Positions 5,978 to 63,304 of a DNA stretch of 64,000 nucleotides are shown piece after piece. Numbering within the stretch: the first letter of the stretch is position 1; each line of letters opens with the position of its first letter. Made by a program: the position numbers and the translations under genes. The DNA is from Dehalococcoidia bacterium (GTDB lineage Bacteria > Chloroflexota > Dehalococcoidia > Lucifugimonadales > UBA3495). The notes beneath the pieces are model-generated. The model was not told where the DNA came from, made no database searches, and saw nothing but the letters and a program-made list of their open reading frames with translations. The DNA is taken from positions 2,315,087-2,379,086 of the forward strand of contig OY761449.1 of NCBI GenBank assembly GCA_963664375.1, given 5' to 3'.

Positions 5978-7612
5978 TCAGTGCTGGGTGCCGCGGTTGA
6001 ACTCGCGAGGCATGGGCTTGAACATGCACCCTTCCACGAAAATCTCGAAGAAATCCGGGGTGGTCTCCAGTTCAACATGCTCGACACGCCGCACAAGGTC
6101 CTCGGCCCGCCGCCGCGAGTCCTGGGACAGGAGCATCATCGTTGCGCCCTCAAGCGCGGCGTTGCCAGCCCGGGCGACGCGTTCCTCCGGGAAATTGGCG
6201 ACGAACCCGATGGCCATTGCATTGGAAACGTCCAGGTAGTTGGCGAAGCCGCCCGCGAGGTAGAGCCGCGATATGTCCTCCACTGGCCGTCCGTACTTTC
6301 GCAGGGTGATGAATTGCCCGCAATAGTTGGCCGACTTCGCCTGCGCCAGGGCACTGATGTCGGCGCGGGAGAGACCCATCCCCTTCTCCGGCGCAAAAAC
6401 GTACTCTCTGGCCCCGTCTTCGAATGCTCCCAGCTCGTTCATCAATCCACCGGCCCGAAGCTCGTGCAGCAGGTCTACCAGCCCGGAGCCGCATATCCCT
6501 TGCGCCTCAGCCCCGCCAATGGTGGACACCTGCGGGCGGCCATCTCGGATGCGAACGGACTCCACCGCGCCGTCGTAGCCTGCCATGCCGTGGGTGACCT
6601 GCCCGCCCTCGAAGGCGGGGCCAGCCGGGCACGACGCGGAGACCATGGCGTGCCGGTTGCCGATGACAACCTCCGTGTTGGTGCCGATGTCCACCAGCAT
6701 CACCGGCTCCTCCTGCTCGTCCATGCCGATGGCCAGGAGGCCGGCGGCCACGTCGGCCCCCACGTGGCTCGCGATGAGCGGCCCCCCGTACACGTGGGCC
6801 TTCGGGAATATCCGCAGCCCCACGGCCTGAGCGCTGGATTGCAGGGAAGTGCCGGTTCGCTCGCCCGCCTCCCATTCCAGCTCGATGGAAGACTTGTAGG
6901 GCTTGACACCCACCGGCTGAACGTTGACGCCGAAGGCGATGTCCCGCATGGTGGTGTTGCCCACAATAACGGCGCTGTAGATCTGGCGCCGTTGAACATT
7001 CAGTTGCCGGATCATTTCGCCTATTTCGAAATTGATCGCCGAGATAATTGCGAGCCTTAACTCGCCCCGGTTTCTCCCGGCGTCGTAGGAAATCCGGTTC
7101 ATGACATCGCTGCCACCGAATTTCTGAGGGTTTTCAAATGAGGACGTAGCGATGATCTCCCCGGATTCCAGGTCGGCCAGGTTAATTGCCACCGTAGTGG
7201 TGCCTATGTCGGCGGCCAATCCCAGTATCCGGCCCCGGTAGATGTCAACCGGCTGGCCGCCGATGGTCACCTCGTCGCCATCGCGCCGGACATGCGGGGC
7301 AAGTTCGACCGCCCGCCGTATGCCCTCGGTGAGGATGCGCGGCTGGCGGCGCAGGACGCTGAACTCTATGGTCTCGGACGGGTCAGCGACGATTGCCTGG
7401 CAGGCAAGCCGGAAGTTGCCGGAAAGAAAATACTCGTCCCGGGAGTTAGGGAACAGTCCCTCCATCCCGCTACGCACCTCCACGATGCACTCGTGGCAAC
7501 TCCCGCCCCTGCCGCAGGAGGTGGGCACGCGCACGCGCAGATGATCGGCGTAGTCGAAGAGCGACTTCCCGCGATGGGCCTGGATTTCATGTCCATTCAA
7601 TATCACTGGCAT
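5978..7612 (-). CDS. Corrinoid reductive activase (RACo/RamA-like ASKHA ATPase with an N-terminal 2Fe-2S ferredoxin domain)
   Basis: CGRGGSCHEC...LACQ plant-type ferredoxin motif, then the ASKHA signatures ADIGTTTV and VDIGTNTE. Start set to ATG 7612 (MPVILNG) rather than TTG 7633. Confidence 0.85.
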   Translation of the reverse strand: MPVILNGHEIQAHRGKSLFDYADHLRVRVPTSCGRGGSCHECIVEVRSGMEGLFPNSRDEYFLSGNFRLACQAIVADPSETIEFSVLRRQPRILTEGIRRAVELAPHVRRDGDEVTIGGQPVDIYRGRILGLAADIGTTTVAINLADLESGEIIATSSFENPQKFGGSDVMNRISYDAGRNRGELRLAIISAINFEIGEMIRQLNVQRRQIYSAVIVGNTTMRDIAFGVNVQPVGVKPYKSSIELEWEAGERTGTSLQSSAQAVGLRIFPKAHVYGGPLIASHVGADVAAGLLAIGMDEQEEPVMLVDIGTNTEVVIGNRHAMVSASCPAGPAFEGGQVTHGMAGYDGAVESVRIRDGRPQVSTIGGAEAQGICGSGLVDLLHELRAGGLMNELGAFEDGAREYVFAPEKGMGLSRADISALAQAKSANYCGQFITLRKYGRPVEDISRLYLAGGFANYLDVSNAMAIGFVANFPEERVARAGNAALEGATMMLLSQDSRRRAEDLVRRVEHVELETTPDFFEIFVEGCMFKPMPREFNRGTQH

Positions 7613-7701
7613 GGTGGCATTGTAGCAAATCAAGAGACAGAGTCAGCTACGGCAAGGGATTCCCAGCAGGACGGTTGCAATTTCTTTCTCCCGGCCCCGA
7701 A

Positions 7702-7742
7702 TTCCCTCCCCCTTGAGGGGGAGGGTTAGGGTGGGGGTGAAA
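7702..7742 (-). repeat. REP-A element
   Basis: ttccctcccccttgagggggagggttagggtgggggtgaaa, intergenic. Confidence 0.9.
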
Positions 7743-7761
7743 TTGCAGCGAAGAGAGTTCC

Positions 7762-8025
7762 TCAGGCACTCCCGTCCATTTCCCATGCCGAGCGGTAGTC
7801 GAGGTTGTCGTCGCCGGTGCAGGGATAGAGTTCGCCCTCCGGGGCGGAGCGGTCCTGGTTGCGGCAGCCGAACCGGGCCGTGCAGAGGTTCTGGGCGTTC
7901 TTGTAGGGGCAGCGGTAGGTGGATACCACGTTCACCGTGTCGGAAATGCCGCGGAATATTTCCGTAAGGCGCTCGACGCTCCGGAGGTAGCGCTCCGGAT
8001 CGGCCTTGGGCCGCTCATCAGCCAT
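7762..8025 (-). CDS. Small Cys-containing protein of unknown function (87 aa)
   Basis: Starts 4 nt after the corrinoid-protein stop on the same strand. Four Cys residues (C-x10-C-x5-C-x17-C). High third-position GC in frame. Confidence 0.6.
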   Translation of the reverse strand: MADERPKADPERYLRSVERLTEIFRGISDTVNVVSTYRCPYKNAQNLCTARFGCRNQDRSAPEGELYPCTGDDNLDYRSAWEMDGSA

Positions 8026-8028
8026 GGG

Positions 8029-8787
8029 TCAGTCCGCGACCGCCGCAGTCTCTACGCCCGGCTGGGCGACGAACTCCTTGGCCAGGTCGACGCAGGCGAT
8101 GGCGTCCTTGCCGTAGCCGTCGGCGCCCATGTCGTCCGCGAACTCCTGCGACAGCGGCGCGCCGCCGACCATGATGCGCACTTCGCCGCGCAATCCCGCC
8201 TCCTCGAACGCCTCGATGGTGCGGCCCATGTTGGGCATGGTGGTGGTCAGCAGCGCCGACATTCCCAGGATGTCCGCCCCCTTGTCCACCACTTCGTCGA
8301 TGAACTCGTCGGGCTGGGTGTCAACGCCCAAGTCATGCACCACGAAACCGGCGCCGCGCAGCATCATGATGCAGAGATTCTTGCCGATGTCGTGCAGATC
8401 GCCCTTCACCGTGCCCATGACCACCGTGCCGATGGGCTCGATCCCGGAAGCCGACAGGATAGGCTCGATATGCGCCATTCCCGCCTTCATCGCCCGCGCC
8501 GCTACCAGCACTTCCGGCACGAAGATTATGTTGTCCCGGAACTTGATGCCCACGATTGCCATCCCCGAGATCAGCCCGTCGTCCATGATGGTGTTGGCCG
8601 AAAACCCGTCCTCGAGGGCTTGCAGCGTCAGCCGGTCCACTTCAATGTTCTGGCCGGTGATGAGCTGGTAGGAAATCTCCTGCATCATCGGGTCGGCTTC
8701 ATCCCACAGGGCGCGAATGTGGCGCTGCTCATCGGGATTCTCGACGTGTGCCAGTTCCGATTCCAGTCCCTCGTGAACGACGGGCAT
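8029..8787 (-). CDS. Corrinoid (cobalamin-binding) protein of a methyltransferase system
   Basis: B12-binding DxHxxG motif (GDLHDIGKN), SALLTTT and MVGGAP motifs, and an N-terminal helical cap domain. Confidence 0.9.
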   Translation of the reverse strand: MPVVHEGLESELAHVENPDEQRHIRALWDEADPMMQEISYQLITGQNIEVDRLTLQALEDGFSANTIMDDGLISGMAIVGIKFRDNIIFVPEVLVAARAMKAGMAHIEPILSASGIEPIGTVVMGTVKGDLHDIGKNLCIMMLRGAGFVVHDLGVDTQPDEFIDEVVDKGADILGMSALLTTTMPNMGRTIEAFEEAGLRGEVRIMVGGAPLSQEFADDMGADGYGKDAIACVDLAKEFVAQPGVETAAVAD

Positions 8788-8839
8788 TTGACTACCTCTC
8801 GTTTGTCTAAATCAGGTGGGAAGTTCCGTAGTTGGGGAG

Positions 8840-8879
8840 TTCACCCCCACCCTAACCCTCCCCCTGAGGGGGAGGGAAT
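8840..8879 (+). repeat. REP-A element
   Basis: ttcacccccaccctaaccctccccctgagggggagggaat, lying between two co-oriented operon genes. Confidence 0.9.
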
Positions 8880-8920
8880 TTCGTTGCCGCTGCATTCAAA
8901 TTTGCAAGTCCCTTTATGAT

Positions 8921-9955
8921 TCAGACGTTCAACTCAGTCCAGTCCTTGACCGCTTGCGGGATAGCCATCAGGTTCTCGATCTTGGTTGCCAGCGGCACGG
9001 CGCACTCCGGCGCGATCATCTGCACCCCGGCGTCGAGGCAGCGGTACACCTCCTGCCGCACCTGTTCCGGGCCGCGGGCGTAGAGCGTCTCCGGGTTGTT
9101 TATGTTGCCCACCAGCCCGATCCCGCCATCGACGGCGGCCATGGCCTCATGCGGGTCGTTCTTTGAATCGAAGTGGAAGGATGCCATGCCGGTCTGAGCG
9201 ATGTAGGGCATGCGGTCAATGGTCTTGCCGCAAATGTGCAGGATCAGGGGGACTTTGAGCCGCTCGGCCATTTCAGCGTGAATGTCTTGCAGGAACCGCC
9301 GGTAGTAGTCGCCGCTGACCAGGTCGCCGGTGGCATGGTCGGGGAAGGTGAGGGCGTCGGCCCCGGCGTCGATCTGTGCCTCGCCGAACAGCACCGACAG
9401 TTCCTTCAGCTTGTGCATGGCGCGCATGGTCTCGCCGGGGTTGTCAACCGTGCCCAGCAGGAAGGGCTCCACGCCGAAGACGTGGTACCCCAGCGTCCAC
9501 GGCCCCATGGTCTTGCCGATGATGGCCACTTCGTCGCCGAACTCCGCCTTGAGCTGGCGGATGGAGCCGGTGATAGCCAGCATGTCGCGGTGTTCCAGGA
9601 TACCCGGAGGAATATGCACGTCGTCCGCCGTCTTCCAGATGGGCCGGTACATGCGGACGGTCGGCCAGTTGTCCTTGTCCTCCCATTGCATCTCGCAGCC
9701 CAGCGCCGACGATTCCTGGATGATGCTGAAGTACGGCATGATCGAGTCGAAGCCCAGCTCGGTGTATCCCGTTGCCGCCAGCCGCGCCGCCAGCTCCGGT
9801 TCCTGGCAGGCTTGCGGAAACGGCGCGTCCACCAGGTCCATCAGCTCCACTGTGGCCACGTTGGTCGGGTTCGCCACCGGCGTCCGGTCAACGGGCTGCC
9901 GGTTCAGCGCCGCCATAGTGCGCTCCCGCGGCGTCATCGTCTCAACAAAAGCCAT
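8921..9955 (-). CDS. Uroporphyrinogen decarboxylase (URO-D)/MtaA-CmuA family methyltransferase
   Basis: 344 aa. Length and overall pattern fit MtaA/MtbA-type or O-demethylase MT-I-type corrinoid methyltransferases, and the gene is adjacent to the corrinoid protein. Confidence 0.75.
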   Translation of the reverse strand: MAFVETMTPRERTMAALNRQPVDRTPVANPTNVATVELMDLVDAPFPQACQEPELAARLAATGYTELGFDSIMPYFSIIQESSALGCEMQWEDKDNWPTVRMYRPIWKTADDVHIPPGILEHRDMLAITGSIRQLKAEFGDEVAIIGKTMGPWTLGYHVFGVEPFLLGTVDNPGETMRAMHKLKELSVLFGEAQIDAGADALTFPDHATGDLVSGDYYRRFLQDIHAEMAERLKVPLILHICGKTIDRMPYIAQTGMASFHFDSKNDPHEAMAAVDGGIGLVGNINNPETLYARGPEQVRQEVYRCLDAGVQMIAPECAVPLATKIENLMAIPQAVKDWTELNV

Positions 9956-18154: not shown

Positions 18155-19354
18155 ATGCGTCGCGTTGCCATTGTTTCACCCGTCCGCACCGCCGTCGGGA
18201 ACTTCGGCGGCACTCTGCGGGATGTCTCTGCCGCCGAACTGGCCAGCACGGTCATCAAGGAAACCCTGGACCGCTCCGGTGTTGACCCGGCCAAGATTGA
18301 CGACGTTATCCTCGGCCACGGCTACCCCAGCGGCGAGAATCCCGCCATCGGCCGTCTGGCAGGGCTGAAGGCTGGCCTGCCTATCGAGGTGCCCGGCTAC
18401 CAGCTTGACCGCCGCTGCTCCTCGGGCCTGCAAGCCATCCTCAACGCCAGCATGCTGGTGCAGACGGAGAACGCCGACGTGGTTATCGCTGGCGGCGTCG
18501 AGAGCATGAGCGGCGCGGAGTTCTACAGCAACGAATCCCGCTGGGGCGCGCGCTACGGCTCGGTCACTTTCCACGACCGCTTGGCCCGCGCCCGCGTCAC
18601 CATCTCCCCGGACGAGCGCTTCGGCCCCATCCCCGGCGGGATGGTGGAAACTGCCGAGAACCTGGCCCGCGAGTACGAAATCGCCCGCACCGAGCAGGAT
18701 GAGTACGCCCTGCGCAGCCACCAGCGGGCCGTCGCCGCCCAGACTGAAGGCCGTTTCGACAAGGAAATCGTCGGCGTTCCCGTCCCGCAGCGCCGCGGCG
18801 ACCCGGTGCCTTTCGAGAAGGACGAAGGCCCCCGCGCCGACACCAACATGGACACGCTGGCCCGTCTGCGCCCGGTGATGCGCGACGGCACGGTCTCCGC
18901 GGGCAACGCCAGCAGCCAGAACGACGCTGCTTCGGTGTGCCTGGTGGTCGGCGAGGACAAGCTGGAGGAGCTGGGCCTCACGCCCATGGCCTTCCTGCGC
19001 GGCTGGGCCGTCACCGGCTGCCACCCGGCCACCATGGGCATCGGCCCCGTCCCGGCGGTCAACAAGGTGATGGGCAAGATCGGTCTCTCCCTCGAGGACA
19101 TGGACTTGATCGAGCTCAACGAAGCCTTCGCCGCCCAGGTGCTGGCCGTGCTGCGCGAGTGGAAGCTGCCCCACGAAGACAACCTGAACGTCAACGGTTC
19201 CGGCATCTCGCTGGGCCACCCCATCGCGGCCACCGGCGCCCGCATCCTGACCACGCTGCTGCACGAGATGGAGCGCCGCAACGCCCAGTTCGGCCTCGAA
19301 ACAATGTGCGTCGGCGGCGGCCAGGGCGTAGCCGCCGTCTTCGAACGCGAGTAA
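18155..19354 (+). CDS. Acetyl-CoA C-acetyltransferase (thiolase II)
   Basis: Active-site Cys context RRCSSGLQAI, then NVNGSGISLGHPIAATGAR and CVGGGQGVA near the C-terminus. Confidence 0.95.
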   Translation: MRRVAIVSPVRTAVGNFGGTLRDVSAAELASTVIKETLDRSGVDPAKIDDVILGHGYPSGENPAIGRLAGLKAGLPIEVPGYQLDRRCSSGLQAILNASMLVQTENADVVIAGGVESMSGAEFYSNESRWGARYGSVTFHDRLARARVTISPDERFGPIPGGMVETAENLAREYEIARTEQDEYALRSHQRAVAAQTEGRFDKEIVGVPVPQRRGDPVPFEKDEGPRADTNMDTLARLRPVMRDGTVSAGNASSQNDAASVCLVVGEDKLEELGLTPMAFLRGWAVTGCHPATMGIGPVPAVNKVMGKIGLSLEDMDLIELNEAFAAQVLAVLREWKLPHEDNLNVNGSGISLGHPIAATGARILTTLLHEMERRNAQFGLETMCVGGGQGVAAVFERE

Positions 19355-22847: not shown

Positions 22848-23843
22848 ATGACCACGCCCAACCTTGCGAAAATCGAACGGGTAGACCTGCGCGAAGCGTG
22901 GGAACACGAGGCATATAATTTCACTCCTTGGCTCGCCAAACACATCGCCGAGCTAGGCGACGCGCTGAAGATGAACTTGCAGACCATCCAGCAGGAGGCT
23001 CCTGTGGGAAGCTTTTCGCTGGATATTCTAGCCATTGATTTTGACAGCAACCGCCGCGTGATAATTGAAAACCAATTGGAGGTTACCAACCACACACATT
23101 TGGGCCAACTGATAACCTACGCCGCAGGATATGATGCAAACGTTGTTGTATGGCTTACGCGGGAATTCCGAGACGAACACCGGCAAGCCCTGGACTGGCT
23201 CAATCAACGCACAGGCGAAGACACGCAATTTTTTGGAGTTGAAGTCGAGTTGTGGCGAATCGGAGAATCTTTACCGGCACCCCATTTCAAAGCAGTCGCC
23301 GCGCCGAATGATTGGATCAAACGGCAGAAGTCTGCCGTTCCGGTAACTGAAAAAGACAAACAAAACTTTGAATGGCGCGGTGTGCTAATAGAATCATTGC
23401 GTAATGATTCTGAAATCAAGTTCTCATCCAGGAGGAATGTCGAAGCAAAGGCCACGTGGCTACTGATCGAAAGACCTGTTACCGACGTCATATACGCGGC
23501 TACTTGGAGTCGGGGCAATCCCGGAATTGAGATTATTGCCCACAAGGGAGGGGCAGGCGGTAGGGAATGGAACCAACGCTTTCTTGATGCTCTGGAAGCT
23601 GAAAGTTCCTCAATTGAGGCTGGTCTTGTAGATCACGAAAAGGGAGAGTGGTGCCTTTGGGAGCGGGACCATAGGCAAGGTAGCTCAAGAGCAGTCATTT
23701 ATCGGAATGGCAACATTTTTGAAGAGCCGGAACTGCGGGCGGAATTCTGTGACTGGATGATCCAGAAGCTCCACAAATTCCGCCAAGTGATAACGCCACG
23801 CCTACAAGAATTTACCGAACAGGAGCAAGCAACCATTGAGTGA
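22848..23843 (+). CDS. PD-(D/E)xK (NucS-like) nuclease-fold protein, DUF4268-type
   Basis: The core FSLDILAID...RVIIENQLEVTNHTHLGQLITYAAG...VVWL..EFRDEHRQALDWLN is typical of DUF4268-associated nuclease domains. It starts 4 nt after the previous stop. GC is about 50%, below the flanks. Confidence 0.65.
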   Translation: MTTPNLAKIERVDLREAWEHEAYNFTPWLAKHIAELGDALKMNLQTIQQEAPVGSFSLDILAIDFDSNRRVIIENQLEVTNHTHLGQLITYAAGYDANVVVWLTREFRDEHRQALDWLNQRTGEDTQFFGVEVELWRIGESLPAPHFKAVAAPNDWIKRQKSAVPVTEKDKQNFEWRGVLIESLRNDSEIKFSSRRNVEAKATWLLIERPVTDVIYAATWSRGNPGIEIIAHKGGAGGREWNQRFLDALEAESSSIEAGLVDHEKGEWCLWERDHRQGSSRAVIYRNGNIFEEPELRAEFCDWMIQKLHKFRQVITPRLQEFTEQEQATIE

Positions 23844-24897
23844 AATTGGCGAAACTACAACCGTCCAGTGGGACAGCGCGCTGGAGGCCATCGAGCGGTG
23901 CTACGAGCTTGGCTGGACCGACGGGCTGCCCGTCGTGCCGCCCACGGAGGCCCGCGTCGCTGAGTTCATTGAGCGCACCGGGCGCCCCTCTGCCGAGGTC
24001 ATTGGCGAGCTGCCCGAGCGGCGCCGGGAGATCACTGTCGGCAAGATCGCGGCCAACGCCGTGATGGCTGGCTGCCTGCCGGAGTACATGCCCGTGGTGC
24101 TTACCGCCACCGAGGCCATGCTCGACCCGGTGTTCAACCTCGTCGGCCCGTCCTCCAGCATGGGCGGCTCGGGCATCCTGACCATCATCAACGGGCCGGT
24201 GACGCGGGAGCTGAACATCAACGCCCGCAACAACCTGTTCGGGCCGGGCAATCGCGCCAACGCCACCATCGGGCGGGCCGTGCGCCTCATCCTGATGAAT
24301 GCCTGCGCCGCCATCCCCGGCGTGTTCGACCGCAGCGTCATCGGCCACCCCGGAAAGTACACCTACTGCATCGCCGAGGCCGAAACCGAAACGCACTGGA
24401 CGCCCCTGCACGTCGAGCGCGGCTTCCAAGCCAGCCAGAGTACGGTGACGGTGTTCGCTGGCGAGTCGCCCCGCCAGGTGCGTTCCGTGGGACGCCCCGA
24501 GCCGATCCTGCTGGCCATCGCCGATACCGCGTCCAGCCTCGGCACCAACATGTCCACCTCCGGCTCCGTCGGCGAGACCGGCACCGGCGTGCGGCAGGGC
24601 GAGATCGTGGTCACCATCGCGGGCAACTCCGGCCTGTGGTCGGACTGGACCAAAGAGCAGGTGCGAGATTTCATTTACCAACGGGCGCAACGCAGCATCG
24701 CCGAATTGAAGCAGGCCCAGGTACTTGCCGGAGACGTTGAGCCGGGCGATGAGTCAACGCCGGTCTCGCTCATCCCCGACCCGTCCGACATCCTGCTGCT
24801 CTTCGCGGGCGGCGAAGAGTCCAACATGTCCTCGGTAATCCCCAGTTGGGGCCCCAAGGTGGGCAGCACCGCAGTTACGAAAGTGATTCCGGCATAA
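23836..24897 (+). CDS. Conserved-looking hypothetical protein (353 aa), first gene of the selenoprotein operon
   Basis: TTG start 10 nt after AGGAG, overlapping the previous gene by 8 nt. Strong GC3 coding signal. Contains GWTDGLPVVPPTE and AANAVMAGC segments, but I cannot assign a family. Confidence 0.6.
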   Translation: MSEIGETTTVQWDSALEAIERCYELGWTDGLPVVPPTEARVAEFIERTGRPSAEVIGELPERRREITVGKIAANAVMAGCLPEYMPVVLTATEAMLDPVFNLVGPSSSMGGSGILTIINGPVTRELNINARNNLFGPGNRANATIGRAVRLILMNACAAIPGVFDRSVIGHPGKYTYCIAEAETETHWTPLHVERGFQASQSTVTVFAGESPRQVRSVGRPEPILLAIADTASSLGTNMSTSGSVGETGTGVRQGEIVVTIAGNSGLWSDWTKEQVRDFIYQRAQRSIAELKQAQVLAGDVEPGDESTPVSLIPDPSDILLLFAGGEESNMSSVIPSWGPKVGSTAVTKVIPA

Positions 24898-24915
24898 GGG
24901 GTTCAACGGAGGGGC

Positions 24916-25269
24916 ATGACGGATCGCGAGGCCCGTTGGCGGCGTAGTATTGAGGAGATCAAGGAGCTAGATGAGCGCCTTGACCAGCTATTTGTGGACA
25001 TTCGCGCCAGTGAAGAGTCCGAGCTTCCCGGGATTCTCCAGGCCTTTCAGGAATCGCCTCTTGGTAGCCGCTTTCGAGGACTGGAAGACGTGGCGGAGGA
25101 TATCCGGGAATGCTACTGCGCCGACAAGACCTGCGGGCATACCTGCACATATTGGGATTGCAGGGAACCGTGCGACGGTAAGTCCCGGGGACATTGCGAG
25201 GACTGTTTCGCATTCGTCCCGAATCTGCTAACCTTCTGCCACTGCGGCCAGACCATCATGGCATCCTGA
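24916..25269 (+). CDS. Cys/His-rich small protein (117 aa), unknown function
   Basis: GGAGGGG RBS. The C-terminal half has 11 Cys and several His (CYCADKTCGHTCTYWDCREPCDGKSRGHCEDC...CHCG). Confidence 0.6.
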   Translation: MTDREARWRRSIEEIKELDERLDQLFVDIRASEESELPGILQAFQESPLGSRFRGLEDVAEDIRECYCADKTCGHTCTYWDCREPCDGKSRGHCEDCFAFVPNLLTFCHCGQTIMAS

Positions 25270-25321
25270 CCATCGCTTTCGGAAGGAGATGGTCTCAAAA
25301 TCAAATTCGGGAGGGGAATGG

Positions 25322-25864
25322 ATGACTACCACCAACGACCATGTCCTGGTCAACCCGGTGACGCAGCCGGTGATCGCCCCGTTCAACGGCGCGCCGCGCT
25401 TGGCCAGCCTGGCCGGCACCCGCCTCGGGCTGATCGACGACAGCAAGCGCAACGCCGATGTCCTGCTGGAAGAGCTGGTGGAGATTTTGCGAACCCGCTA
25501 CGAGATTGCCAGCGTCAAGTGGCACCGCAAGCCCAGCGCCTCGCGCCCCGCCGACCCGGAGGCCCTCAAGGAGCTGGTGGAGGAGTGCGATTCCGTGGTC
25601 GTTGCGATAGGTGATTGAGGGTCTTGCAGCGCGTGCAGTGTGCACGACGGAATTCACGTTGAGAACGCTGGCATCCCCTCGGCCACCATTTGCACCGACC
25701 GGTTCATCCCGACGGCCACTGGCATGGCCCGCATGTGGGGCGCGCCCGACTACCCTACCATCTACACCGAGCACCCCATCGAGAACCTCACCCGCGAGGC
25801 CCTGCGCGCCCGCGCCGAAGGCTTGGCGCCGCTCGTTGTGCAGGTGCTGACCGGCGAGGGCTAG
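25322..25864 (+). CDS. Selenoprotein with a U-G-S-C motif (in-frame UGA at 25616-25618 read as Sec); 'UGSC family (seleno)protein'-like
   Basis: ORFs 25289-25618 and 25640-25864 share one frame and are separated only by TGA. Read-through gives VVAIGD-U-GSCSACSVHDGIHVENAG. A hairpin lies 13 nt downstream. Start ATG 25322 is preferred (GGGAGGGG 5 nt upstream), with ATG 25289 as an alternative. Confidence 0.75.
25632..25646 (+). promoter_or_regulatory. Candidate bacterial SECIS hairpin
   Basis: CGTGCA-GTG-TGCACG, a 6-bp stem and 3-nt loop, begins 13 nt after the UGA. Possible outer pairing of CAGCG (25627-25631) with CGCTG (25666-25670). Confidence 0.4.
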
Positions 25865-25935: not shown

Positions 25936-26166
25936 CTACGCCAGCTCGCGCCGTAGTGTCGGCGGCAGCAGGTTCGGGATAGTGTCCTCAATCGGGTAGG
26001 TCTCGTCGCAAGCGGCGCAGTAGAGCGAGCCCGTCACGATCTCATCGCCCTCTTCCACGTCGGCCTTCAGTTGCAATTCGCCCTTGCACACCGGGCAAGC
26101 CAGGATTTCCATCAGGTCTCGTTTCAAGTTCTCCCCCTCGTTTCGCAGGGCCTTTTCAAAGTCCAT
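25936..26166 (-). CDS. Trm112-family zinc-ribbon protein
   Basis: ILACPVCKGELQL...LYCAACDETYPIEDTIPNLL is the Trm112 signature. The start is ambiguous (ATG 26166 or ATG 26112). The longer ORF to 26292 is encoded by a family-D repeat. Confidence 0.75.
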   Translation of the reverse strand: MDFEKALRNEGENLKRDLMEILACPVCKGELQLKADVEEGDEIVTGSLYCAACDETYPIEDTIPNLLPPTLRRELA

Positions 26167-26175
26167 TCCAAGCCG

Positions 26176-26243
26176 CTCATGGTGAGCTTGTCGAACCACC
26201 AGCGGCTTGAACCGGCATCCTTCGACAAGCTCAGAATGAGTGG
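26176..26243. repeat. Family-D repeat (ATGGTGAGCTTGTCGAACCAC... with a 12-bp inverted repeat GAGCTTGTCGAA/TTCGACAAGCTC)
   Basis: The inverted repeat lies at 26183-26194 and 26221-26232. A partial copy (atggtgagcctgtcgaaccac) is at 55061-55081. Confidence 0.7.
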
Positions 26244-26323
26244 ACGACAGGTTCGCCACGAGTGGGCGCCAGTGGATAACGTTACTTCGCAAAGGCCCTG
26301 CTCATTTCCTTCCTGCTGTTGAT

Positions 26324-26809
26324 TCAGGACACCAGCGCGTTTTCGAACAACGCATCCAGCACGTCGGACAGGCCGATGACCACGACGCCGATTACCAGCA
26401 GCGCCATCGGGCTGGTGGCCCGGCGGACGGCCCGGCGCAGTGTCCCCGTCCCCTCATCTTCCGATGGCCCGTAATCTCCTCGCCGCACGATGCGTACCAC
26501 GTAGAACATGAACAGCGCCAGCGCAATCTTGACGCCGAGGACAATTGCGTAGGGAACCGTGGCCCCCTCGCCGGTCAACCGGGCCACTGACAGGATCACG
26601 CCCGTCAGCAGCAGAACCGCGATGGCCGTGGCGACGAGGCCGCGAAATTCGTCCCTGATCGCCGTTCCGGTCTCCGGGGGCATTCCCTGTGACCGCCGGA
26701 TGGCAGGACGCAGCACCATCAGGTAAAAGATGCCGCCGCCCACCCAGGCCACGGCGGACACGGCATGCCCCCACCGGATGATGACCAGTATCCAGTCTAA
26801 AACGCCCAT
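26324..26809 (-). CDS. Integral membrane protein (about 4 TM helices), CopD-like
   Basis: Hydrophobic helices throughout, with an N-terminal WGHAVSAVAWVGG motif reminiscent of the CopD/DUF-type membrane families. The assignment is tentative. Confidence 0.5.
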   Translation of the reverse strand: MGVLDWILVIIRWGHAVSAVAWVGGGIFYLMVLRPAIRRSQGMPPETGTAIRDEFRGLVATAIAVLLLTGVILSVARLTGEGATVPYAIVLGVKIALALFMFYVVRIVRRGDYGPSEDEGTGTLRRAVRRATSPMALLVIGVVVIGLSDVLDALFENALVS

Positions 26810-26859
26810 TCACATCCGCACACTGATGGTCTTGGCTGAGGCGGCACTAACAGCCGGAG

Positions 26860-27354
26860 CTACCCATCAATCAACTCTCGCACAATACCGGTTAACTGTC
26901 CCGCGTCCATGGTGCTCACGAATGTCTCCGCGACCCTGCCCTTCCGGTCAATGAACCATGTGGTAGGGTAGAACTCGATCCCGTAGGTCGATGCTATGGT
27001 CTTCCGGTGGTCCGTTGCGAAGTCGAAGGTTAATCCAAACTCGCTCACGAACTCGCGGGCCATTGCCTCGTTGTCGAACCCGCTTGGCACGAACAGCCCC
27101 AGAAACCGCACCGGCTCGCCCTCCAACCCCTCCCATGCCTTCTGGAATTCGGGCATTTCCTCCCGGCATGGCGCACAACTGGGATACCAGAAATTGATCA
27201 CCACTACGTTGTCGGCATACTCCTCGGACAGACGGAACTCCCCGCCATCGAACAGTTGCACCTCGAAATCCTGAGCTGTCTCCCCGCCACACGCCGTCGC
27301 TAGCAGCAGAAGCAGCAGCAATGCCAGTGGCAAGGATTTCAATTGACGGAACAT
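26860..27354 (-). CDS. TlpA-family thiol:disulfide oxidoreductase lipoprotein (thioredoxin fold)
   Basis: Lipobox LLLATAC after a signal peptide. WYPSCAPC CxxC active site. Start set to ATG 27354 (MFRQLKSLPL). Confidence 0.85.
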   Translation of the reverse strand: MFRQLKSLPLALLLLLLLATACGGETAQDFEVQLFDGGEFRLSEEYADNVVVINFWYPSCAPCREEMPEFQKAWEGLEGEPVRFLGLFVPSGFDNEAMAREFVSEFGLTFDFATDHRKTIASTYGIEFYPTTWFIDRKGRVAETFVSTMDAGQLTGIVRELIDG

Positions 27355-27436
27355 CGCACAATCCAGCCGGGGCCACGGCGCCATGGCATTCTATATGTGC
27401 CCCGCCCGCCTTTCAACGCGGGAGTCAGATTCAACC

Positions 27437-53530: not shown

Positions 53531-54910
53531 TCATGCCTTCAACCCTTGCAGACAGGCCAGCAGGTCACCCTCTTCGTCCGTGCCAACAGTGCGCGGGTCG
53601 AACAGCACTTTCTCGTCCTCAACCCTGGCGATCACCGGGGGCCGGCTCTCGCGCAATCTCTGCATTACGCCACCGGCGCCGCCGTCAACGCCGGTAGCGT
53701 CCAGCGCAAGAACCCACGTCGGCAGCGTCTCGCCGGGCAGGCTGCCTCCGCCGATGGCCGACCGCGACTCGCAAACGCTGTACGCGCGGCCCAGCGAGGA
53801 ACGCCAGCGTTCGGCCCGCTCGCAGATGTCATCCGGCGTGGCCGAGATCATGCGCCAGACCGGAACCTCGCTTTCAGCTTCGCCCTTGAGATAGTGGACC
53901 AGGGTGGCCGTCAGGCTGGCTAAACTCAGCTTGTCGATGCGCACCGCCCGGGCCAGGGGGTGTCGGGCCAGCCGCGATACCAGCTCGCGCCTTCCCGCCA
54001 CGATGCCCGCCTGCGGGCCGCCCAGCAGCTTGTCGCCGGAAAAGAACACCAGGCCCATCCCGGCCCGAACGCTCTCCTGGGGCATTGGCTCGTGGGCCAG
54101 TCCGTACCTCTCGGTGGGAAGCAGGCTGCCGCTGCCAACGTCGTGCAGGACGGCCACGCCCAGCCGGTCGCCCAGTTCGGCCAGTTCCTGCATCCCGACC
54201 TCGGCGGTAAAACCCTCGACCCGGAAGTTGCTGGCATGCACTTTCAGGTATGCGGTGGTGTCCGCGGTAGTGGCGTCCTCGTAGTCTCGCAGGTAGGTGC
54301 GGTTGGTGGTGCCGACGTCCACCAGCGTGGCCCCGCTCTGCCGCAGCACGTCGGGCACTCGAAAGCCGCCGCCGATCTCCACCGCTTCGGCGCGGGACAC
54401 GATCACTTCGCGCCCCGCCGCCAGCGCCAGCAGCCCCAGCAGCACCGCCGACGCGTTGTTGTTCACCGCCAGGGCCGCCTCCGCGCCGGTTATCTGGCGG
54501 AGCAGCGATTCCAGTTGCGCCTGCCGGGAGCCGCGGCGTCCAGACCTTAAATCAAACTCCAGGTTGGAGTATCCGTATGCGGCCTCCTCGGCAGCTCGCA
54601 TGGCAGCCCGGCTCAGCGGGGCGCGTCCCAGGTTGGTGTGAATCACCACGCCGGTCGCGTTGATCACGCGCCGCGGCTCTGCCCGCACCACGTCGTCCAC
54701 CCGCTGGCACACCAGGGCGGCCACCTCATCCAAGTCCGCCGCCGTCTCTCCCTTCCGTATGCGTTCGCGGGCCAGGTCCAGTTCGCTGCGAACCAGCTCG
54801 ACCACCCACTGGCGGCTGAACGACGACGCAATTTCCGCCACCTCGGTCGTGGCGAGAACGCTGTCAACGCTGGGAAGATTTCTGTATTGCATCCGAGTCC
54901 GCAAGGGCAA
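53531..54910 (-). CDS. selA: L-seryl-tRNA(Sec) selenium transferase
   Basis: YRNLPSVDSVL N-terminus, PLP-lysine motif FSGDKLLGGPQAG, 459 aa. Confidence 0.9.
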   Translation of the reverse strand: MPLRTRMQYRNLPSVDSVLATTEVAEIASSFSRQWVVELVRSELDLARERIRKGETAADLDEVAALVCQRVDDVVRAEPRRVINATGVVIHTNLGRAPLSRAAMRAAEEAAYGYSNLEFDLRSGRRGSRQAQLESLLRQITGAEAALAVNNNASAVLLGLLALAAGREVIVSRAEAVEIGGGFRVPDVLRQSGATLVDVGTTNRTYLRDYEDATTADTTAYLKVHASNFRVEGFTAEVGMQELAELGDRLGVAVLHDVGSGSLLPTERYGLAHEPMPQESVRAGMGLVFFSGDKLLGGPQAGIVAGRRELVSRLARHPLARAVRIDKLSLASLTATLVHYLKGEAESEVPVWRMISATPDDICERAERWRSSLGRAYSVCESRSAIGGGSLPGETLPTWVLALDATGVDGGAGGVMQRLRESRPPVIARVEDEKVLFDPRTVGTDEEGDLLACLQGLKA

Positions 54911-62199: not shown

Positions 62200-63304
62200 C
62201 TACTCCCCCTCTCCCAGCCGGTGCATCAGGTAGGCTTCTATGAACGGGTCTATCTGGCCGGATAGCACGTTGTCGGGGTTGGTGCTTTGCAGGTTGGTGC
62301 GGTGGTCCTTGACCGACTTGTACGGGTGTAGCACGTAGCTGCGGATCTGGTGGCCCCACTCGGGATTGGCGCGCTCCCCGCGGATCTTCGCCAGTTCCTC
62401 GGCGCGCTCGTCGTCCTGGCGCTTCAGCAGCCTGGCCCGCAGGATGCGCATGGCGTACTCGCGGTTCTGGTGCTGCGAGCGCTCCGTCTGGCAGGACACA
62501 ACGATGCCAGTCGGGAGGTGGGTTAGCCGGACGGCGGAGGCCACCTTCTGCACGTTCTGTCCACCCGGCCCGCTGGAGCGGAACGTGTCCATCTTGATGT
62601 CCTCCGGCCGGATGTCGATGTCCGATTCGCTTTCCACTGCCGGGAGTATCTCGACGTTGGCGAATGACGTATGGCGCAGGTTGTTGGGGTCGTAGGGCGA
62701 CAGCCGCACCAGACGATGCACGCCCTGCTCGGCGCTCAGGTATCCGAAGGCGTGGTCGCCGCCAACCTCGAGAATCCCGCTGCGCAGGCCCGCCTCGTCG
62801 CCGTAGGACAAGTCCATGACCTCCAGAGGCCTCTTACCGCCCTCGGCCCAGCCCACGTACATTTGCAACAACATCTGCGCCCAGTCGTGGGAGTCGGTGC
62901 CTCCGGCGCCGGAGTGGATGCTCACGATGGCCGCGCGCTCGTCGTACGGGCCGGAGAGGGTGAGCTTCATTTCCTCGCGGGCCAAGTCGTCAGACAAGAC
63001 TTCGGCATCGGCCTCCAACTGCTCTTCCAGAGAGGCATCGTCCTCGTCGATTGCCAGTTCAGTGAGTTCAAGCAGGTCGGAACTTCGCGACTCCATGTCC
63101 CGCCACGGTACCACGGCATCGCGCAGGCGGCTTATCTGCCGCATCTTGGCTTGGGCTTGCTGATGGTCGTTCCAGAAGTCCGGTTCGGCAGACTCCTCTT
63201 CCAGTTCTGCTATCTGGAGTTCCTTGCCGGGGAGGTCAAAGACGCTCCACCACGGACGCCACTTTCTGGGCCAGGGCTGCCAGGTTTTGCCTCAGTTGTT
63301 CCAT
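62200..63304 (-). CDS. prfB: Peptide chain release factor 2, with a programmed +1 frameshift
   Basis: Frame 0 reads MEQLRQNLAALAQKVASVVERL then TGA at 63238-63236. Frame +1 continues DLPGKELQIAELEEESAEPDFWND...SPYDPNNLRHTSFA...GPGGQNVQKV (GGQ) to the stop at 62200. Confidence 0.95.
63235..63252 (-). promoter_or_regulatory. prfB +1 frameshift site CTT TGA C with an upstream internal SD-like GGTGGAG
   Basis: The minus strand reads GTGGTGGAGCGTCTTTGAC, the same architecture as the canonical RF2 autoregulatory site. Confidence 0.9.

Follow-up and report, generated by a model that had tools for sequence, protein, structure and literature searches.

A UGA-interrupted gene of the UGSC family

We analysed a 64-kb window (the whole stretch of DNA under study, 64,000 nucleotides of contig OY761449.1 in assembly GCA_963664375.1, from a Dehalococcoidia bacterium) around a gene at 25322-25864 that carries an in-frame UGA. 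The locus is almost certainly a single selenoprotein gene, as judged both from its UGSC family identity and from the recoding of its UGA as selenocysteine (Sec). It lies close to a conserved gene for a 353-residue protein, with which its product may act. The features of the gene are the following.

25310..25316, + strand: Shine-Dalgarno-like GGAGGGG, 5 nt 5' of the start codon, read from the sequence
25322..25864, + strand: UGSC-family selenoprotein gene, 180 codons, Sec at codon 99, stop TAG at 25862-25864; matches NF041046 and PF24696
25616..25618, + strand: in-frame UGA, read as selenocysteine U99 and followed by G-S-C102-S-A-C105
25630..25649, + strand: selenocysteine insertion sequence (SECIS) element, 8-bp stem with a bulged A and a GUG loop, starting 11 nt after the UGA

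A preliminary description of this DNA, made from the sequence alone, had reported two open reading frames (ORFs; 25289-25618 and 25640-25864) in the same frame, split by the TGA at 25616-25618, and this is what the sequence contains. Read-through gives ...SVVVAIGD-U-GSCSACSVHDGIHVENAGIP... and ends at the TAG, for a product of 98 residues, Sec and 81 further residues, with U99, C102 and C105. The probable start codon is the ATG at 25322, in agreement with the starts of the orthologues and with the GGAGGGG upstream. The share of G and C at third codon positions is 0.78 before the TGA and 0.86 after it, so the GC-rich codon usage described earlier indeed holds on both sides.

Scored with Cys in place of Sec, the read-through product matched the NCBIfam equivalog model NF041046 ("UGSC family (seleno)protein"; 155.9 bits, cut-off 125) and the Pfam family PF24696 ("UGSC family"; 195.3 bits, cut-off 25). 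Both matches cross the UGA, and they cover positions 2-147 of 147 and 15-171 of 172 in the two family models. The motif U99-G-S-C102 occupies the (U/C)GSC column of the family, and the domain runs on both sides of it. The preliminary description had given the family name, without a function, and the name was correct.

The gene is therefore a typical Sec-form member of an already named and curated family. The finding itself is not new, since the UGSC family has been known, with no assigned function, since 2007-2008 (Zhang and Gladyshev 2007/2008). A "UGSC-containing protein" was first mentioned in 2007 as a selenoprotein without known function, reportedly carried by Hyphomonas neptunium (PMC1976440), and a 2026 review still places UGSC among the uncharacterised families (PMC13188914). 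The present member shares with the family the full-length match above curated cut-offs, the (U/C)GSC motif at its conserved place, the Sec form that is characteristic of marine and aquatic metagenomes, and the linkage to a presumed "Unknown_1" domain (see below). It differs in nothing essential; peculiar to it are two lineage-specific ORF inserts nearby (22848-23843 and 24916-25269) and C105, which is missing from most of the family.

Conservation of the UGA codon

Orthologous loci were collected from metagenome-assembled genomes of Dehalococcoidia, Chloroflexota or SAR202; there were 80 of them, the closest being OY763410.1 (96% identical). The TGA is at the same codon in 80/80. Conservation does not end there: in the 79 loci free of contig-end cuts, the frame stays open for 80-82 conserved codons beyond the TGA and encodes a near-invariant GSCSACSVHDGIHVE.AG.PSATICTDRF. 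The TGA is also found in four distant members (L081-L084). An exhaustive profile search returned 2,647 cluster representatives, and column counts were taken from the 119 full-length sequences among the best 150. The Sec column is occupied by Cys in 113/119 and the +3 column by Cys in 106/119, which bears out the U-x-x-C motif (U-G-S-C) proposed earlier. The column of the third Cys (C105) holds Cys in just 25/119, and so this residue is not a feature of the UGSC family.

In public gene calls, the Sec forms nearly always appear as two pieces, one of about 100 residues that ends in ...IGD and one of about 70 residues. This speaks for a TGA that is a true stop, either between two small genes or within a decaying pseudogene. 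We regard such a stop as very improbable, as we do a reading of UGA by other means, be it near-cognate suppression or a reassigned code. The TGA lies inside a single Pfam/NCBIfam domain and a single predicted fold, its position and the downstream frame are kept throughout the orthologues, and homologues place Cys in the same column. Moreover, TGA terminates 13 of the 42 confident genes of the window and many of the orthologous UGSC genes themselves, and UGA is therefore an ordinary stop in this lineage, whose code is not reassigned. Among the genes of the window with an in-frame TGA, there were no other U-x-x-C candidates; most matches fell inside long ORFs of the opposite strand.

The codon preceding the UGA (25613-25615) is GAT in all 80 loci, even though GAC is common at other Asp codons. 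The distant member L084 has AGT (Ser) at this place, and a contig with a CGA variant has GAC. The invariant GAT may be required as context, either for inserting Sec or for avoiding termination. In two homologues that look full-length, the "Arg" forms P0001 and P0002, GAC-CGA replaces GAT-TGA upstream of an intact SECIS; on the P0001 contig (L094, 656-661), this amounts to two adjacent T-to-C differences. We rejected the Arg form as a stable variant, since the intact SECIS points to a recent mutation (loss of Sec) or a sequencing error.

A constrained hairpin follows the UGA

A hairpin of 6 bp had been described 13 nt after the UGA. It is present and conserved, and corresponds to the core (CGTGCA-GTG-TGCACG, 25632-25646) of a longer element, for which we revised the stem to 8 bp with a bulged A and its start to 11 nt past the UGA. 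The element consists of a 5' arm CGCGUGCA (25630-25637), a GUG loop (25638-25640), a 3' arm UGCACG (25641-25646), the bulged A (25647) and a closing CG (25648-25649).

The evidence for this element comes from codon use. In an alignment of the 80 sequences anchored on the TGA, 122 codons encode a conserved amino acid with degenerate codons. Only 7 of them use a single codon across all 80 sequences, and these are the GAT at -1 and the block GCG-TGC-AGT-GTG-CAC-GAC at +5 to +10 (Fisher p = 1.7e-9). The hairpin block has a mean codon entropy of 0, compared with 1.23 bits elsewhere, and the 20-nt SECIS block is identical even in members with 52-59% protein identity. All 8 pairs are canonical in 47/47 distinct sequences, with a single variable paired base that alternates between C-G and U-G. 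The 6 invariant synonymous sites all lie within the SECIS (5 in the stem and 1 in the loop). Double-sided covariation is not visible, because the stem is invariant across all members.

Folding z-scores were not significant (-0.37 for 71 nt, -0.22 for 40 nt and about -1.5 for 21-25 nt). Stability alone is therefore unable to support the SECIS, and it is conservation that decides. A thermodynamically unexceptional hairpin would also suit a TGA that acts as a true stop; against this stands the constraint that the hairpin shows at the RNA level. We discarded a 40-nt minimum free energy fold in an alternative register, whose outer helix is broken in 26/47 sequences and which leaves the invariant synonymous sites unexplained. 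No SECIS family was matched in Rfam at gathering thresholds, where the sole match was to a tRNA. Judged by its conservation, the hairpin after the UGA is a real SECIS, for which SelB binding is predicted.

Like the bacterial SECIS of the Escherichia coli fdhF type, the hairpin lies in the coding region right after the UGA and has a small loop with a G (here GU). The minimal fdhF element likewise has an 11-nt spacer between UGA and stem and a bulged nucleotide. The present element differs in its sequence, in its 3-nt loop, in the bulged A on the 3' side and in having no Rfam match. A small apical loop with a G was the feature used for bacterial SECIS elements by the authors of the Sargasso and Global Ocean Sampling (GOS) surveys (PMC1088965).

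The SECIS also bears on the protein. Residues 104-109 (A-C-S-V-H-D) are frozen in the Sec forms and variable in the Cys forms, and the UGC codon of C105 is part of the SECIS stem. For these reasons, the "UxxCxxC" appearance of the protein may reflect RNA constraint rather than chemistry.

Selenocysteine machinery and UGA handling in the window

The preliminary description had placed selA in the same window, and the gene is there.

53531..54910, - strand: selA, L-seryl-tRNA(Sec) selenium transferase, TIGR00474 538.7 bits (cut-off 267.9)

Its presence suggests a Sec-insertion pathway in this genome, and argues further against a true stop at 25616-25618.

UGA is recoded at one further place in the window, and this concerns the factor with which SelB competes for UGA. 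The prfB gene for release factor 2 (62200-63303, - strand) has a classic programmed +1 frameshift, with its site at 63235-63241. The ATG at 63303 starts a 22-codon ORF ending in ...CGT CTT TGA C, with GGAG 3 nt upstream. The +1 frame is the ORF at 62200-63141 with the PCRF and RF-1 domains, whose match begins at position 30 of the PCRF profile.

An unannotated protein family is paired with UGSC

Upstream of the UGSC gene lies the gene that we call its partner.

23836..24897, + strand: conserved 353-residue partner gene without a Pfam or NCBIfam family, with a near-invariant Cys80 in NAVMAGC

No family matched the protein even at E = 10 (Pfam) and E = 0.1 (NCBIfam). Its homologues fill at least 8,000 database clusters, all named "hypothetical protein"; the matches listed are 82-96% identical and come mostly from Chloroflexota of the SAR202 type. 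Conserved motifs are GWTDGLPVVPPT, NAVMAGC, RANATIGRA and PGKY..C.AE. The AlphaFold2 (AF2) model of the partner had a predicted local distance difference test score (pLDDT) of 78 and a predicted template modelling score (pTM) of 0.83. Foldseek matches of this model to class-I fumarate hydratase and to "Toblerone-fold" hydrolases had template modelling (TM) scores of at most 0.25, and we took them as no match.

The two genes are found together in very different genomes. The partner adjoins UGSC in 79 of the 80 Dehalococcoidia loci and in 15/15 plasmid records with a detectable UGSC gene, which come from Actinomycetota, Alpha- and Betaproteobacteria and haloarchaea. Both gene orders occur, in Bacteria as well as in Archaea. 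Among Cys-form loci of soil metagenomes, the partner is adjacent in 76/80, the remaining four contigs stopping within 215 nt, and in 32/32 of the loci with 1.1 kb or more of sequence on each side. In nine representatives (P0393, P0403, P0404, P0406, P0420, P0425, P0435, P0451 and P0467), the two proteins are fused. The fused partner parts are 32-38% identical to the protein of the window, share 21 invariant columns with it and keep the near-invariant Cys80. Among the invariant residues of the partner are N142, R147 and E181. This near-constant adjacency or fusion suggests, at the level of sequence, that the partner and UGSC work together.

A fusion of UGSC to a domain named "Unknown_1" was noted in the GOS paper of 2008 (PMC2398784). 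The fusions found here are presumably the same, and the partner is probably the "Unknown_1" domain. It is arguably more novel than the selenoprotein itself.

Two plasmids, of Sporomusa termitida (L090, 5317-7041) and Vibrio europaeus (L092, 5323-7008), encode "hypothetical proteins" of about 570 residues that match the partner. Judged by their size alone, these are probably UGSC-partner fusions. Genes for aconitase X and DUF126 lie near both of them (divergent in Sporomusa), which hints at a shared pathway there.

Predicted fold and possible distant relatives of UGSC

The structure of UGSC was modelled with AF2 on P0001, a full-length homologue 61% identical to the protein of the window, with an alignment of both halves. 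Five parallel beta-alpha units make up the model (pLDDT 86, pTM 0.80). Sec falls within the loop that follows strand 3, and C102 opens the next helix, which places the motif at a strand-loop-helix junction. Foldseek matches in the Protein Data Bank (PDB) were all to generic three-layer folds of the flavodoxin-like kind (lumazine synthase, flavodoxin-like domains, RpiB, CheY and TIR), at TM scores of at most 0.48. The fold of UGSC is accordingly predicted from the model to be a flavodoxin-like three-layer alpha/beta/alpha sandwich, and not thioredoxin-like. Sequence searches of the PDB with the UGSC protein, the family profile and the partner gave nothing meaningful.

A thioredoxin-like fold had been guessed for UGSC in 2008, when the family was grouped with thioredoxin-fold proteins (PMC2398784). 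UGSC would then be a general-purpose redox protein. Its U-x-x-C is indeed typical of redox selenoproteins, and a few copies (L084 and L094) have no partner gene beside them. UGSC also resembles the thioredoxin-, peroxiredoxin- and DsbA-like selenoproteins in having this motif at a loop-to-helix junction and in the presumed selenenylsulfide cycle. It differs from them in its predicted fold: no thioredoxin-fold protein was among the top 50 Foldseek matches, which leaves the 2008 guess unsupported, and Trx, Grx and Prx families had no Pfam match in the protein. The near-obligate adjacency or fusion with one specific protein family also speaks against a general-purpose role. We consider this explanation unlikely.

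The only foreign hidden Markov model (HMM) families matched by UGSC were those of selenoprotein B: GrdB (E = 1.5e-5), followed by GrdF, the TIGR01918 subfamily, PrdB and GrdH. These matches cover residues 78-157, Sec included. Their scores are far below the cut-offs (24.1 vs 602 bits for TIGR01917, GrdB; 17.2 vs 65 for TIGR01918; 16.4 vs 300 for TIGR04483, PrdB), and no match of the UGSC protein to the Pfam family GRDB (PF07355) was reported. Among 60 diverse Cys-form members, 13 match GrdB at E <= 0.01, and no unrelated family recurs. By coordinate offset, the Sec column comes to lie at about position 346-347 of 431 in the GrdB profile and about 148 of 238 in the PrdB profile; the Sec of PrdB is U151 in Clostridioides difficile (PMC11229817). 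A remote relation of UGSC to the Sec segment of selenoprotein B is plausible from these sequence matches.

The likeness to GrdB, GrdF, GrdH and PrdB extends to the Cys at +3 of Sec, to the reliance on a second, co-encoded subunit and to the trxB-trxA genes beside the pair in at least one UGSC organism. UxxCxxC following Sec has been described as a selenoprotein-B motif (Wagner et al. 1999, as cited in passages of PMC6778437 and PMC13188914), and the protein of the window shows it (U99, C102, C105), with the reservations on the third Cys given above. There are also clear differences. GrdB and PrdB have about 435 and 240 residues, compared with 180 in UGSC, where the third Cys is not conserved. 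The partner matches no GrdE or PrdA model and is thus unrelated to these pyruvoyl proproteins. Finally, GrdB and PrdB belong to Stickland fermenters, whereas UGSC is found in Dehalococcoidia/SAR202 metagenome-assembled genomes, soil metagenomes, haloarchaea and other cultured heterotrophs.

These similarities raise the possibility that UGSC provides a catalytic nucleophile of the GrdB/PrdB type. The selenolate would attack the carbon next to the carbonyl of a partner-bound substrate and displace an amine, ether, sulfonate or similar group; C102 would then resolve the selenoether to a selenenylsulfide, to be reduced by a dithiol system. This would be a more specific version of the two-subunit reductase proposed below. 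It would account for the only recurrent foreign HMM matches, which lie over the Sec segment, and for the position of the Sec column close to that of PrdB U151. PrdB, too, requires a tightly bound second subunit, and candidates for generating a carbonyl (GMC, short-chain and zinc-dependent alcohol dehydrogenases) recur beside the UGSC pair. The order trxB-trxA-partner-UGSC on an Arthrobacter plasmid resembles the organisation of grd operons. Weighing against it are the low scores, the missing PF07355 match, the dissimilarity of the partner to GrdE and PrdA, the unconserved third Cys, a Sec-to-Sec correspondence taken from coordinate offset, and the lack of a PrdB or GrdB structure for comparison. 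Overall, we regard the nucleophile as possible but rather doubtful.

Proposed role in a two-subunit reductase

Clues to the reductant come from fusions and neighbours. In one representative (P0453), UGSC is joined to a thioredoxin-reductase-like flavoprotein of the pyridine-nucleotide-disulphide oxidoreductase type, and in several (e.g., P0373) to a NifU-like CxxC domain. In addition to the Arthrobacter plasmid, trxB directly follows the pair in Roseovarius and lies about 2 kb upstream of it in Variovorax.

The neighbours of the pair are often dehydrogenases or oxidoreductases: of the GMC family here and in Variovorax, of the short-chain dehydrogenase/reductase (SDR) family in Variovorax, Halalkalicoccus and two soil loci, zinc-dependent alcohol dehydrogenases (Zn-ADH) in three soil loci, and flavin adenine dinucleotide (FAD) oxidoreductases in Sporomusa, Acidovorax and one soil locus. 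Coenzyme A (CoA)-transferases, LysR-type regulators and carboxylate transporters also recur.

Taken together, we propose the following mechanism. SelB with Sec-tRNA(Sec) would recognise the bulged-A hairpin past the UGA at 25616-25618, and selenocysteine would be inserted at position 99, as the comparative evidence indicates for both steps. In the predicted flavodoxin-like domain, U99, from the loop behind strand 3, would make a U-x-x-C redox pair with C102, from the beginning of the next helix. UGSC would form a two-protein enzyme with the neighbour encoded at 23836-24897 and serve as its redox-active subunit. As a substrate bound to the partner is reduced, the Sec/Cys pair would alternate between the reduced state and a selenenylsulfide. 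Re-reduction would fall to a system of the thioredoxin-reductase type, whose genes lie next to the two in some organisms and would lie elsewhere in the present genome. The GMC, SDR, Zn-ADH and FAD dehydrogenases, CoA-transferases and carboxylate transporters around the pair may point to the catabolism of small organic acids or alcohols.

That UGSC is the redox subunit of such a two-subunit reductase has, from these sequence relationships, a little better than an even chance. The statement as a whole, a recoded UGSC selenoprotein acting in a two-subunit reductase, we hold to be fairly probable; within it, we infer that the two proteins form a complex, which way electrons flow and what type of substrate is used.

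Several observations weigh against this proposal. The preliminary description had taken the Sec-insertion machinery to exist in this genome; selA agrees with this, and a search of the 64-kb window, about a dozen smaller ORFs excepted, did not reveal selB, selD or tRNA-Sec. Adjacency and fusion show functional linkage, not which protein catalyses. One Sec-form copy (L084) and the P0001 contig (L094) have no adjacent partner. For the partner, neither a fold relative nor a cofactor motif was recognised, so that its binding of the substrate is likewise something we infer. A dedicated trxB accompanies the pair in only 3/8 annotated contexts. No trxB or trxA was found in the window, in the 84 Dehalococcoidia-type loci or in the 80 soil loci, many of which have short flanks. 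Given this patchy presence, a dedicated reductase would be optional, and the reductant named above is a proposal.

The gene cluster and other neighbours

The UGSC pair closes a cluster of genes on the + strand.

18155..19354, + strand: thiolase (acetyl-CoA C-acyltransferase), cluster head; Pfam Thiolase_N/C, NF004853 646 bits; in the same place in L081-L083
19498..21156, + strand: GMC-family FAD oxidoreductase; Pfam GMC_oxred_N/C; in 48/80 loci (a count limited by the 6-kb flank) and also in L081-L083
21367..22395, + strand: NHL-repeat beta-propeller gene; Pfam NHL/SGL; upstream in 74/80 loci
22848..23843, + strand: variable 331-residue ORF between the NHL and partner genes; DUF4268 weak (E = 2.7e-4), PIN/VapC very weak
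24916..25269, + strand: 117-residue Cys-rich ORF between partner and UGSC, a lineage-specific insert; no family match

In a marine member with 52% identity, the order thiolase-GMC-NHL-partner-UGSC is kept and densely packed, and in L081-L083 the end of the NHL gene overlaps the start of the partner by one base. The variable ORF at 22848-23843 is present in only 21/80 loci, with 45-58% identity compared with about 90-95% for the flanking genes, and resembles an insertion into the operon that is hypervariable or mobile. The Cys-rich ORF at 24916-25269, which contains …CYCADKTCGHTCTYWDCREPCDGKSRGHCEDCFAF…FCHCG…, was found only here and in L004 (76% identity); L001 and L002 lack it and have a gap of about 70 nt at this place. 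It is preceded by GGAGGGG(C/A)ATG at 24908-24918, where GGAGGGGCATG duplicates the GGAGGGGAATG of UGSC, 402 nt apart.

Directly downstream of UGSC, a divergent trio (25936-27384, - strand) encodes a Trm112-like zinc ribbon (118 residues, with an N-terminal extension), a CopD-like membrane protein and a ResA/TlpA-like thiol-disulfide oxidoreductase; it is kept in 64-73 of the 80 loci. Further away (5978-9955, - strand), a RACo-type corrinoid reductive activator (Fer2 and RACo, 5978-7630) lies near a URO-D/MtaA-like gene of the methyltransferase family (8921-9952), which suggests a corrinoid-dependent methyl-transfer system.

Implications for SAR202-type bacteria and for the UGSC family

Surveys of abundance and function in SAR202-type bacteria have a blind spot here: they miss the UGSC gene because public calls split it into two "hypothetical proteins." Confirming a known selenoprotein adds little in itself, and the main lead is the unannotated partner family together with the two-subunit hypothesis. 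The near-obligate pairing makes the Cys-form pair of culturable hosts testable, and the plasmid loci of Arthrobacter, Variovorax and Roseovarius have trxB beside or near the pair. One such Cys-form pair is WP_054009257 and WP_054009256 of Arthrobacter sp. ERGS1:01, which has its own trxB and trxA.

More tentatively, and with less chance of being right than of being wrong, UGSC and its partner may form an unrecognised and widespread two-subunit (seleno)cysteine enzyme of SAR202/Dehalococcoidia, soil bacteria and haloarchaea, a distant relative of selenoprotein B in which a novel substrate subunit replaces the pyruvoyl protein. Such an enzyme would act after an alcohol dehydrogenase (GMC, SDR or Zn-ADH) has made a carbonyl, and would reductively cleave the adjacent carbon-heteroatom bond. 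If true, this would bring Sec chemistry of the Stickland type into the degradation of carbon in oxic marine and soil environments.

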